Assembly: GCA_951406725.2 (NCBI GenBank) | Contig: OX597822.1 | Coordinates: 116,498,001-116,562,000 of the forward strand | Length of the DNA: 64,000 nt | Reading direction: 5' to 3' | Source: Octopus vulgaris | Taxonomy: Eukaryota | Program-made: the position numbers and the translations under genes | Part shown: positions 19,972-33,230 of the stretch, one piece after another | How the letters are laid out: each line of letters opens with the position of its first letter | Numbering within the stretch: position 1 is the first letter of the stretch | Notes under the pieces: generated by a model | Database searches by the model: none | What the model was told of the DNA's origin: nothing | What the model saw: the letters and a program-made list of their open reading frames with translations, nothing else

Positions 19972-20785
19972 CATCATCATCATCATCATCATTATTGTCC
20001 GCTTTCCATGCTAGCATTGGTTGGACGGTTCAACTGGGGTCTGAGAAGCCAGAAGGCTGCACCAGGTTCCAATCTGATCTGGCAGTGTTTCTACGGCTGG
20101 ATGCCCTTCCTAACGCCAACCACTCCGTGAGTGTAGTGGGTGCTTTTTACGTGCCACCGGCACAGGTGCCAGACGAGGCTGACAATGGCCATGATCGGAT
20201 GGTGCTTTTTATGTGCCACCGGCACAGAGGCCAGTCAGGGCAGTGCTGGCAACGGCCACGTTCAGATGGTGCTTTTTATGTGCCACCGGCATGGAGGCCA
20301 GTCAGGGCAGCACTGGCAACAGCCACATTCGGATGGTTCTCTTATGTGCCACTGGCACTAGTATCACAGCTACAATTTCCATTGATGTTGATCGATTTCG
20401 ATTTTCACTTGCCTCAACAGGTCTTCACAAGTAGGGTTTGTGTCACAAGAAGGAAAGCCATGCATAAGTGGACTAGCTACATCCCATGTAGAGGCCACGG
20501 GTTATGGTCTCACTTGTCCTGCCGGGTCTTCTCACGCACAGCATACTTCCAAAGGTCTCGGTCTCTAGTCATTTCCTCGGTGAGACCTAAAGTTCGAAGG
20601 TCATGCTTCACCACCTCATCCCAGGTTTTCCTGGGTCTACCTCTTCCACAGGTTCCCTCAACTTCTAGGGTGTGGCACTTTTTCACACAACTATCTTCAT
20701 CCATTCTCGCCACATGACCATACCAGTGAAAACGTCTCTCTTGCACACCACAACTGATGCTTCTTAGGTCCAGCTTTTCTCAGGT
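19972..20785 (-). mobile_element. 5'-truncated RTE-clade LINE (ORF C-terminus plus 3' UTR)
   Basis: ORF 20510-20746 reads ERRFHWYGHVARMDED..GRGRPRKTW, typical of RTE C-termini; (TGA)n tail. Confidence 0.85.
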
Positions 20786-21263
20786 AATGTGGTACAATTG
20801 TTTCATGCTACTTCATTTTATTAAACACTGTAAGTATTACATCAGTTTTAAAATGTCGAGCAATCTTCAGCCACTTATAGAAATTTTCCTATCAAACGGA
20901 CAACGCACATTCTTATCTCTATTTCATTTGCCAACATTATAAAGAGGGTAGATATACAGACAGAGAGGTTGATTTCATTCTTAAGAACATGATAGTATTA
21001 AATCTACTCTCTGACTGTAGATTTTTTCACTTTGTTATTTATATCTGGGGATTCTCTTTTTTGGTTGGATGGAGACAAAGAATTTTTCTATTTATAGATA
21101 TAGGAAGGTGTAGAAACAAATGTCAAAACCTATTCCTATTCTGAGGAACCCAGCCCAGATATATTTGAATGCACTATAGCAAAAAGCTAGTATATTGAAG
21201 TGAGAGGGGTAGGGGAAGATAGACTATTATTGTTCCAGGGATTTTAATGTCCCTTACCATTTA

Positions 21264-22211
21264 ACAGCCAGAATCCATATTAATAGATTTAAGTAAATAT
21301 TCTTTAGACAATTTTCTAAATGATTTCAATAAACATTAGTATCTTATATAGGGATAGGAAATATAGAAATCATTTCATATTTATATAAATATATATATAT
21401 ATATATCAATTGCAGCATGGAAGGTGTTTATAAGCCATTTAAGAAACACACAAAAGCCGTTCGATTCACTCCAACATTTAAGTTTAATTTGTCAAATTAA
21501 ACTTAAATGTTGAGGTGAATCGAACGGCTTTTGTGTGTTTCTTAAATGGCTTATAAACACCTTCCATGCTGCAATTGCTTTCGTTTCAGCACACGATCTC
21601 AGATCAAATTACTTGCTATGCGAGTACATCTCCGTAATATATATATATCCATTTCCATTAATTAATAATCATAATTAGCTAGTAAGTGGTGATTTTTTTA
21701 ATGAGTTGAATTAAGAGAAAATGTTAGACATAATATTTACTGTGGAAAAAACATTATTAATTTAGTACATATATCAGGAGTCAATAAGATATATTAAAAA
21801 GTAATGGAAGGGAGGTAATCAAGATGAACCAAGTAATTTCTCTAGAAATATGAAATAATCACAAATAATTCCACACACCTGGAGAAATTACCTGGCTCAT
21901 CCCGATCACCTCCCCCCCATTACTTTACACCTCATTGACTCCCAACCCATGTACCAAATCAATAATGGTTCCCTCAGGGTTAGCAAATACCATGTCTAAC
22001 ATTTCCTTTTAATTCAACTCACCAAAACAATCCCCACCCACCAGCCAACTATGACTATACACTAATGGAAATGGACATATACATATTTATACAAATACGA
22101 AATGACTTCTACACCTTCCATCCCCACACAACATACCAATGCCTATTGAAATCATTTAGAAAATTGTCTAAAGAATATTTACTTAAATTTCCTAATACAG
22201 AATCCGGTTGT
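21264..22211. repeat. Long inverted repeat with A/G-asymmetric arms, interrupted by a nested hairpin element
   Basis: The left arm (21264-21400 plus 21640-21860) pairs with the right arm (21866-22211). Confidence 0.85.
21407..21637. mobile_element. Palindromic element (arms 21407-21577, plus tail) inserted in (TA)n
   Basis: CAATTGCAGCATGGAAGG...CCTTCCATGCTGCAATTG, near-perfect with a minimal loop. Confidence 0.8.
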
Positions 22212-22280
22212 CCATATGGTTCTGGGTTCAGTCCCACAGCATGACACCTTGCACAAGTGTCTTCTATTATAGCCTCAGGT

Positions 22281-22612
22281 CACACATGTTTTGTGGCTAT
22301 ATTTAAGAAATGGTTAGAGTAGAAATATTAGTAGTAGTAGTAAAATCACTTCAATATAAATATAGCCACTCATCAGGTTAAAGATAACTACTACCACTAA
22401 TATTTTTACTATTATCATTTCTTAAATATAGCCACAAAACACGTGTCGTTATTCTACCAAATATATACGTTTTACTTATTGTTTTGCACATTACTTAATT
22501 ATCGTTATATTTTTTATCTTATATTTAATCTTTCTATTATATTTAATTTTCTAGATGGTATAATTTAATTTTTCATTTTGAATTGATAAAGGGTGTTTTT
22601 TTTCTAATTTAC
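22281..22612. mobile_element. Inverted Penelope-like terminal repeat with a hammerhead-like motif
   Basis: The minus strand reads CTGATGA-GTGGCTATATTT...AAATATAGCCAC-AAAAC. The plus-strand half ends AAAAC-ACGTGTC-GTTA. Confidence 0.6.
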
Positions 22613-31382: not shown

Positions 31383-31857
31383 ATGGTGGCAGTGGCATTG
31401 CTGCTGCTGCTGTCATCATCATCATCACCATCATCACCATCATTTTATTTATGGGGGTGTTATTTTCTTTTTCTTTGATTTACTAAGTAATGTTCAATAA
31501 TAATAATAAGAAGAAGAAGAATTCCTACTATAGGCCTGAAATTAAGGGGGCAGAAACTAATTGATTTTATTGGCCCCAGCGCTCAACTGGTACTTATTTC
31601 ATCAAATCTGAAAGAATGACAGGCAAAGTTGATCTTGGTGGAATTTGAACTCAGTTCACAAAGCTTGAAGAAATGGCACTAACCATTTTCTCTGGCTGAT
31701 GTGCTAACTATTCTGCCAGTTCACTGCCTTTAAAAATGAAAGGCAAAGTTAACCTCAGTGAGATTTGAACTCAGAACATAAAGAGCCGGAAGAAATTTAG
31801 CTAATCATTTTATCTAGAGCTCTAATGATTCTACAAGTTTAATATTCAAAATAATTG

Positions 31858-32835
<978 letters not shown>

Positions 32836-32836
32836 G

Positions 32837-33230
32837 GACGTAGTCTTAATTAAGAAAGAAAACAAACTATGCTGGATCATAGATATAGCATGCCCAGCTG
32901 ACAACAAGGTATGTGATAAGGAAGAAAGAAAAGTCGAGTGATATGACAGGTTAGCTTGGGAAGTTAAGCAGTTGTGGTCAATGGAAAAAGGTGGTAGTGG
33001 TGCCAATAATTGTCAGAGCCCTGGGAACAGTAAGCAAAAATTTTGAGAAGTATGTGGGACAAATACGGGCTGCAATAAGGGTGGAGCATTTGCAGAAAAC
33101 AGCACTGCTTGGAACTGGTCAAATACTCCAGAAGGTACTCGAAAACTAAGAGGTGTTACCTTAGTTCACTGGTCATGAACAGCTGACACCGTAATACATC
33201 TCCAGCGTTAGAATCTTTGCAAAGGCAATG
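32837..33230 (+). mobile_element. R4/Dong-like non-LTR retrotransposon 3' end (restriction-like endonuclease)
   Basis: DVVLIKKENKLCWIIDIACPAD..KEERK..Y..VPIIV.ALG..LQKTALLGT, flanked by (TAA)n. Confidence 0.85.

Follow-up and report, generated by a model that had tools for sequence, protein, structure and literature searches.

In plant organelles, C-to-U edited RNA undergoes retroprocessing, and an edited RNA state is thereby made genomic via cDNA; the Octopus vulgaris locus described here would be comparable in that respect, but the plant process involves a different enzyme, is site-specific rather than a form of hyperediting, and is organellar. Deaminase scars in genomic retroelements are established for APOBEC enzymes (PMC4866542; PMC2873906), whose DNA editing is recorded in LTR retrotransposons of vertebrate genomes, with invertebrates serving as the negative control (PMC4866542). 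Like the changes reported here, those scars are strand-biased, fixed in genomic retroelement copies, and detected by polarization against the family; however, they are G-to-A changes made on the cDNA of LTR elements in vertebrates, whereas the octopus changes are A-to-G and were most likely made on RNA (PMC4866542). For ADAR, a review notes scars in the proviral DNA of two avian retroviruses (PMC12925331). These share with the octopus copies the clustered A-to-G changes, at 35–50% of adenines, the inverted-repeat setting and, on our reading, fixation via reverse transcription, but they come from exogenous viruses in culture, whereas the octopus changes lie in an inherited Penelope-like element, SINEs, and an apparent intron retrocopy, and are common to several samples and to a second organism label. 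Ultra-edited RNAs of inverted Alu pairs are a further parallel, with a deficit of 5′ G, an excess of 3′ G, and an inverted SINE pair in pre-mRNA, but those edits are in RNA only and ours are in genomic DNA at a new locus (PMC3197674). The editing of repeats in cephalopod RNA is known (PMC9068888), and the accessible text of another account (PMC5974252) contains nothing on the re-integration of edited RNA. In a literature search covering mainly openly available papers, we found no description of SINE, Penelope, or intron retrocopies that stand in the genome with ADAR hyperediting.

An inverted repeat with a single-class mismatch bias

The window analyzed here is a 64,000-nt stretch of contig OX597822.1 (positions 116,498,001 to 116,562,000), placed on contig C9 of the 2.8-Gb genome. 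It contains an inverted repeat with the following features (window coordinates):

20510..20779, minus strand: 3′ fragment of a presumed LINE-like ORF (89-aa open frame), adjoining the left arm
20782..21847, minus strand (element sense): left arm, the unedited non-coding 3′ region of a probable Penelope-like element (29 family loci, 82–92% over the paired part)
21388..21635, no strand assigned: later insertion of ~249 nt within the left arm, missing from the right arm and the family
21407–21577, inside that insertion: near-perfect hairpin/palindrome of 171 nt with a 1-nt spacer, arms 98% complementary
21847..22220, minus strand, antisense to the element: right arm, a further segment of that element in inverted, head-to-head orientation, hypermutated from A to G
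21873..21879, minus strand: four A-to-G changes without counterpart in the present left arm, from alignment to the family majority
22144..22191, minus strand: part of the right arm, 48 nt long, whose 20 successive adenines are all unedited (longest such run, permutation p=0.002)
22212..22280, plus strand: SINE head fragment minus its first ~35 nt (SINE match starts at 22212)

Local alignment of 21264–21846 with the reverse complement of 21871–22211 yields 67 mismatches in 329 aligned columns, viz. (left/right) 49 A/G, 6 G/A, 2 C/T, 1 T/C, and 9 transversions, the imbalance of A/G over G/A having a binomial p of 1.8e-9. This bears out the first-pass annotation, which had estimated by eye about 40–50 sites with A on the left and G on the right. 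Its claim that the other hairpins of the window lack this bias also stands: when the 165 inverted alignments of the masked window were ranked, considering only those with at least 12 mismatches, the outer piece of this repeat had the highest single-class share (0.70), with the runner-up at 0.47. The feature which it had placed at 21264..22211 is confirmed as such, with limits now corrected to an element beginning at about 20782 and a right arm of 21847 to about 22220.

The junction of the left arm with the adjoining ORF fragment, which we take to be of LINE origin, is single-copy. At the other end, the SINE fragment overlaps the right arm by about 9 nt, since the family match reaches 22220, and shows by eye no T>C excess; this SINE is broken by a second inverted-repeat element (22287–22447). 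The 171-nt palindrome interrupts a run of TA in the left arm and has very high depth in DNA runs, which suggests a MITE-like hairpin of very high copy number.

Two short-read runs, X1 and X2, each yield one 357-nt contig across 21817–22173 with 0 differences, a span that takes in the junction between the arms and the greater part of the right arm; they share one organism label but represent two samples and two studies, and X1 may be the assembly's own sample. A run under a different organism label (X3) covers 164 nt at 22001–22164 with 2 differences, at a depth of 2.7. A further run (X4) has depth across part of that arm but gives no assembled piece among those listed, and is left out of the evidence. 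No RNA run containing the right arm is present among the sequencing runs listed. The inverted repeat is present in real DNA and is probably old. The first-pass annotation had named an assembly or polishing artefact, seen in raw reads, as a refuting outcome; the exact match of the short-read contigs in two samples rules out such an artefact as the source of the A/G bias.

The right arm is the derived arm

A BLAST search of the genome with the G-rich right arm as query gave 45 matches, of which the best apart from the arm itself reached 80%. Thirty loci were fetched with this query; the 29 outside the window are far closer to the left than to the right arm, from which they differ almost only at the A/G sites. 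Measured against the family majority, the right arm has G at 49 of 138 conserved A (36%; 55/149 with a looser column filter) and 9 other changes, such that A-to-G makes up 49 of its 58 changes, on one strand. The family copies have 0–6 A>G changes each; for the left arm, A>G stands at 5/141 and T>C at 0/114. Where the left arm has A and the right arm G, the family majority is A in 53 of 54 columns (A in 1444 of 1552 family cells), even though the G-rich arm was the query by which the family was gathered. A degenerate 25-mer, searched exhaustively, has 58 genomic matches, of which 50 contain no G, six contain one, one contains two, and the right arm contains five. The right arm is the derived arm and the ancestral state is A, which excludes cytidine deamination of the left arm.

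The first-pass annotation had weighed two options and favored C-to-U deamination of the left arm, which is refuted by the family A at these columns. Neither of its two hints survives: the G-rich unpaired flank (21180–21263) is ordinary family sequence common to other copies, and the restriction to a single arm gives no information on direction. Polarization by the family consensus, which it had itself called for, gives A and favors its other option, namely the reverse transcription of an ADAR-edited RNA into the right arm. We accordingly assign a negligible probability to an account by APOBEC- or RIP-like deamination of the left arm, by two subfamilies, or by an assembly artefact. There is no G-rich subfamily among the 58 matches or the 45 BLAST hits, and the short-read contigs are identical to the assembly. 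The A/T derived from ancestral G/C that mark APOBEC/AID- or RIP-type activity are not seen in the inverted repeat, and 190 kb of repeat-covered sequence contains 0 clusters of G>A or C>T versus 7 of A>G or T>C.

Identity of the repeat

The family extends about 640 nt on one side and >1,300 nt on the other, into a broken frame with a weak GIY-YIG match (PF01541 in locus L013; E=2.2e-4, 21.9 bits versus a cut-off of 22.6). The putative GIY-YIG ORF, collinear in this and other loci, sets the sense strand of the element. The family also shows an internal tandem of about 255 nt and opposite-strand (head-to-head) segments in 17 of 63 other loci. The short fragments examined gave no Pfam match to a Penelope-type reverse transcriptase; in family fragments we recognize what we take to be motifs of its thumb region. 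A hammerhead ribozyme in the terminal repeat is a feature of Penelope-like elements, and no hammerhead family is among the Rfam matches of two loci (L013 and L020). With moderate confidence, we interpret the repeat as belonging to a Penelope-like retrotransposon, of which it would be the non-coding 3′ region. The likeness to described Penelope-like elements extends to the tandem and inverted terminal segments and probably to the GIY-YIG-type ORF (PMC3846280).

The left arm has its sense on the minus strand, and the right arm is inverted relative to it, head-to-head; the A-to-G changes of the right arm therefore lie on the antisense strand of the element. An antisense template has been proposed for head-to-head Penelope arms (PMC3846280). 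The accessible part of that account describes no hypermutated arm in these elements, whereas here the edits would mark the antisense strand as the likely template (PMC3846280). More generally, such edits would show which RNA strand served as the template of an insertion, and would make the choice between sense and antisense templates of Penelope inverted arms testable.

The two arms have no common private allele and differ at 12 of 177 non-A columns; a tree places them in one subfamily but not as sisters, a weak result in that only one or two columns separate cleanly. The nearest copy (L002) differs from the right arm at 10 of 193 non-A columns. Genome searches for a source locus with either right-arm junction return the window only, which is also the only match to hypermutation patterns for Penelope copies. 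A further site with 1,430 matches, searched on both strands, gave no hypermutated Penelope copy, a weak blank given that mismatch searches may be non-exhaustive. No second hypermutated copy was found among the 17 other inverted arms and L135, which are clean, and beyond the right arm the largest A>G value among the family's inverted arms is 12/75, from a copy that is old and diverged; for this family, the hypermutated arm is one event.

In one family locus (L014:2507–3037) the Penelope-like frame runs into a long (AAT)n, an asparagine-rich stretch reminiscent of the N-rich inserts reported in Penelope elements of rotifers. The window, too, contains long arrays of (AAT)n (31829–32938).

Neighbor preference and folding of the right arm

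Sorted by 5′ neighbor, the A-to-G changes of the right arm fall at 27/60 adenines after T, 19/52 after A, 5/17 after C, and 4/20 after G; by 3′ neighbor, 13/25 are changed before G and about a third before the other bases, with 7 of 11 TAG contexts edited. Tests on single neighbors in this arm are not significant (p=0.13 and 0.11), and its 3′ part has p=0.15, whereas the full context, scored with the weights of the independent SINE set described below, gives a one-sided permutation p of 0.013. The published ADAR motif has G depleted upstream and enriched downstream (PMC3197674), and the order of neighbors in the right arm is weakly suggestive of the published order. From this pattern and the confinement of edits to duplex arms, we infer ADAR as the enzyme. 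The genome encodes an A_deamin domain at four loci, the members of which may be ADAR, ADAD, or ADAT.

The two arms as they now stand pair in a long duplex (−273 kcal/mol, z −31), and the spacer between them is also able to fold weakly on itself. Yet the present hairpin was probably not the duplex that underwent editing: its left arm carries no edits at all (0/114), unlike what a single hairpin RNA would predict, and four edits lie beyond the left-arm end. Those four edits, at 21873..21879, may also hint faintly at an editing partner longer than the present left arm.

The unedited island of the right arm is nearly identical to the left arm. It might reflect either protection of this stretch or a local gene conversion event with the left arm as donor.

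Edited SINE copies across the genome

A SINE 29-mer with seven forced G has 40 sense-strand matches in the genome among 88,557 matches, i.e., a low rate of at least 40 in 88,557, with copies carrying exactly four forced changes apparently under-returned by the search. An antisense-strand pattern at another SINE site has 3 matches, of which two (L063 and L064) show no clear cluster; the two patterns, coming from different SINE sites, are not matched. Twenty-nine of the first 30 sense matches have at least five of the seven forced G, versus a chance expectation of 0.004–0.34 that allows for one of the seven sites being a subfamily polymorphism (~32/100 rows). Outside the pattern, A>G changes number 190/709 in 35 distinct copies as against 18/668 in 33 unselected ones, after removal of two duplicates (L048 of L047 and L056 of L055), four polymorphic A columns, and a microsatellite. 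Three copies (L129–L131) were scored apart (6/83, 9/84, and 11/85), and L032, L042, L061, and L129, with few edits outside the pattern, may reflect mild editing or chance. The edits of the set follow T at 61/153, A at 108/298, C at 13/63, and G at 8/195, and precede G at 63/164; judged by its neighboring bases, the set carries the ADAR context, with 5′ G depleted and 3′ G enriched.

Scanned without regard to mutation class, 515 kb of sequence, of which 190 kb was covered, yielded the 7 clusters mentioned above, all of them A>G or T>C and all within the arm in the window or copies already selected; none of 73 unselected SINE copies is an outlier. The edit haplotypes are different in all 35 copies and all four gametes occur at 184 of 190 site pairs; therefore, the edited SINEs do not descend from one edited master, and we reject such a master. 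Label changes on a tree of edited SINEs number 19 versus 23 ± 2.2 when shuffled (p=0.06). Among 20 inverted SINE neighbors of edited copies, 19 have no opposite-strand change (43/770 versus a background of 168/2825), indicating that the editing mostly did not take place at the present loci. An intrinsic SINE hairpin as the substrate is unsupported (z −1.7, one natural copy).

A retrocopy with an unedited source and other paired cases

The single exception among these neighbors is a locus (L051) with two inverted SINEs, both with A-to-G changes on one strand, and a spacer matching a second locus at 98%. The copy (L069:4143–6334, contig C22) spans 2.2 kb, and its source (L070, contig C2) precedes, in the same orientation, a coding exon for the alpha-catenin N terminus (E=7e-7). 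Compared with the source, the copy has A>G at 21/65 in arm 1, 1/180 in the spacer, 43/98 in arm 2, and 3/102 in the tail, the two SINE arms together amounting to 64/163. The SINE arms of the source are unedited, even though the pair lies in a gene. The 5′ truncation of the copy falls within the upstream SINE, and the 3′ end of the copy coincides exactly with the (GAT)n tail of another SINE, past which the loci diverge. No target-site duplication is visible at the ends of the copy, which combines the retrocopy hallmarks of an unedited source elsewhere, 5′ truncation, and a 3′ end at a retroelement tail. Its edits are on the pre-mRNA (alpha-catenin) strand and restricted to arms able to pair as RNA, a pattern to be expected if a retroelement enzyme copied hyperedited RNA from the intron. 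A further head-to-head SINE pair (L071:4664–5257, G000:C20) has A-to-G changes on the same strand in both arms, at 14/32 in the upstream arm versus 12/90. No source was found for the flanks of L071 and L072, and the flank searches as a whole found a source in 1 of 3 cases.

The C2 source has gained two insertions that the copy is without. The copy carries what we take to be a U6-like fragment and a hAT-type MITE with an 8-bp duplication.

These pairs bear on the alternative of an in-place process, in which a transcribed hairpin was edited and the right arm was overwritten by its cDNA, or hairpin DNA was itself deaminated. It would be in keeping with the long duplex formed by the present arms and with the editing of both arms of L071, whose flank source was not found; but it leaves the untouched left arm and the edits past its end unaccounted for, the inverted SINE neighbors are unchanged in all cases except one that is a retrocopy, and the genic C2 pair stayed unedited. 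We regard it as highly improbable. We also hold it very unlikely that an error-prone polymerase built the inverted arm. The incorporation of G opposite T or U is an error of the Pol eta or iota type, or of a reverse transcriptase short of dATP, and could account for both the single arm and the 5′ A/T preference; the 3′ G enrichment in the right arm alone is not significant. However, 36% of the adenines are changed with almost no other class, while polymerase error is far lower, the 17 other inverted arms of the family and L135 are clean, and polymerase error cannot account for edits that halt at the duplex borders in the C22 copy.

Proposed origin of the edited copies

The A-to-G direction, the antisense strand, the presence in the DNA of several samples, and the membership of a genome-wide class that includes one case with an unedited source are all observed. 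We propose that the right arm very probably arose from an ADAR-hyperedited RNA that was reverse-transcribed into germline DNA. The antisense RNA of the Penelope-like element would have been edited by ADAR while double-stranded, its inosines would have been read as G by the reverse transcriptase, and the edited copy would have been joined head-to-head to an unedited copy of the element in the germline, with the two arms coming from different templates. In one such scenario, the Penelope reverse transcriptase would finish an unedited sense RNA and then, at the TA-rich junction, switch templates to an antisense RNA that had already been edited; we consider this the most likely two-template route and place in it about half of our confidence in the origin as a whole. 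Alternatively, edited RNA might have been patched into a break at an existing, older copy.

The Penelope arm is edited on the antisense strand, opposite to most SINE matches (40 sense versus 3 antisense, from patterns that are not matched). This polarity, together with the ADAR-like context, would also fit a process in which ADAR acted on the DNA of a cDNA:RNA hybrid; the right arm would then be first-strand cDNA that was made from sense RNA and deaminated before the second strand was synthesized. In vitro, the DNA of DNA:RNA hybrids can be edited by ADARs, but the review that reports this limits such DNA editing to dA-C mismatches and mutant enzymes (PMC12925331). Moreover, the left arm would likewise be first-strand cDNA and yet is unedited, the SINE matches are sense-polar, and in the C22 copy the edits lie on the pre-mRNA strand and only in the arms that pair as RNA. 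We deem this process unlikely; if it did occur, it would be an A-to-I equivalent of APOBEC restriction, acting beside an RNA-templated route for the SINEs and the intron.

RNA editing is treated as non-heritable, and the dozens of genomic copies, one of them with an unedited source, would indicate that hyperedited RNA has entered the germline. On our preferred reading of reverse-transcribed edited RNA, ADAR activity would have a direct route to heritable mutation in a cephalopod genome with extreme editing, and the edited copies would constitute a fossil record of past germline editing. They also call for caution in editing callers and in repeat dating, as edited-looking sequence is present in the DNA itself.

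Further observations on edited SINEs

In the edited SINE copies (L032–L061 and L108–L114), the last 45 nt (SINE positions 341–385) are nearly edit-free (10/296), while light editing is seen in the 5′ head (16/185); the sparing of the last 45 nt would fit a requirement for an intact 3′ end in retrotransposition. One unselected SINE (L132:1436–1812, G000:C1) has three A-to-G changes in the 29-mer and 6/86 overall, reflecting either mild editing or chance. A tail-to-tail SINE pair (L073:4631–5105, G000:C14) is edited in each member on its own sense strand (11/45 and 14/61), and might represent two edited insertions side by side.
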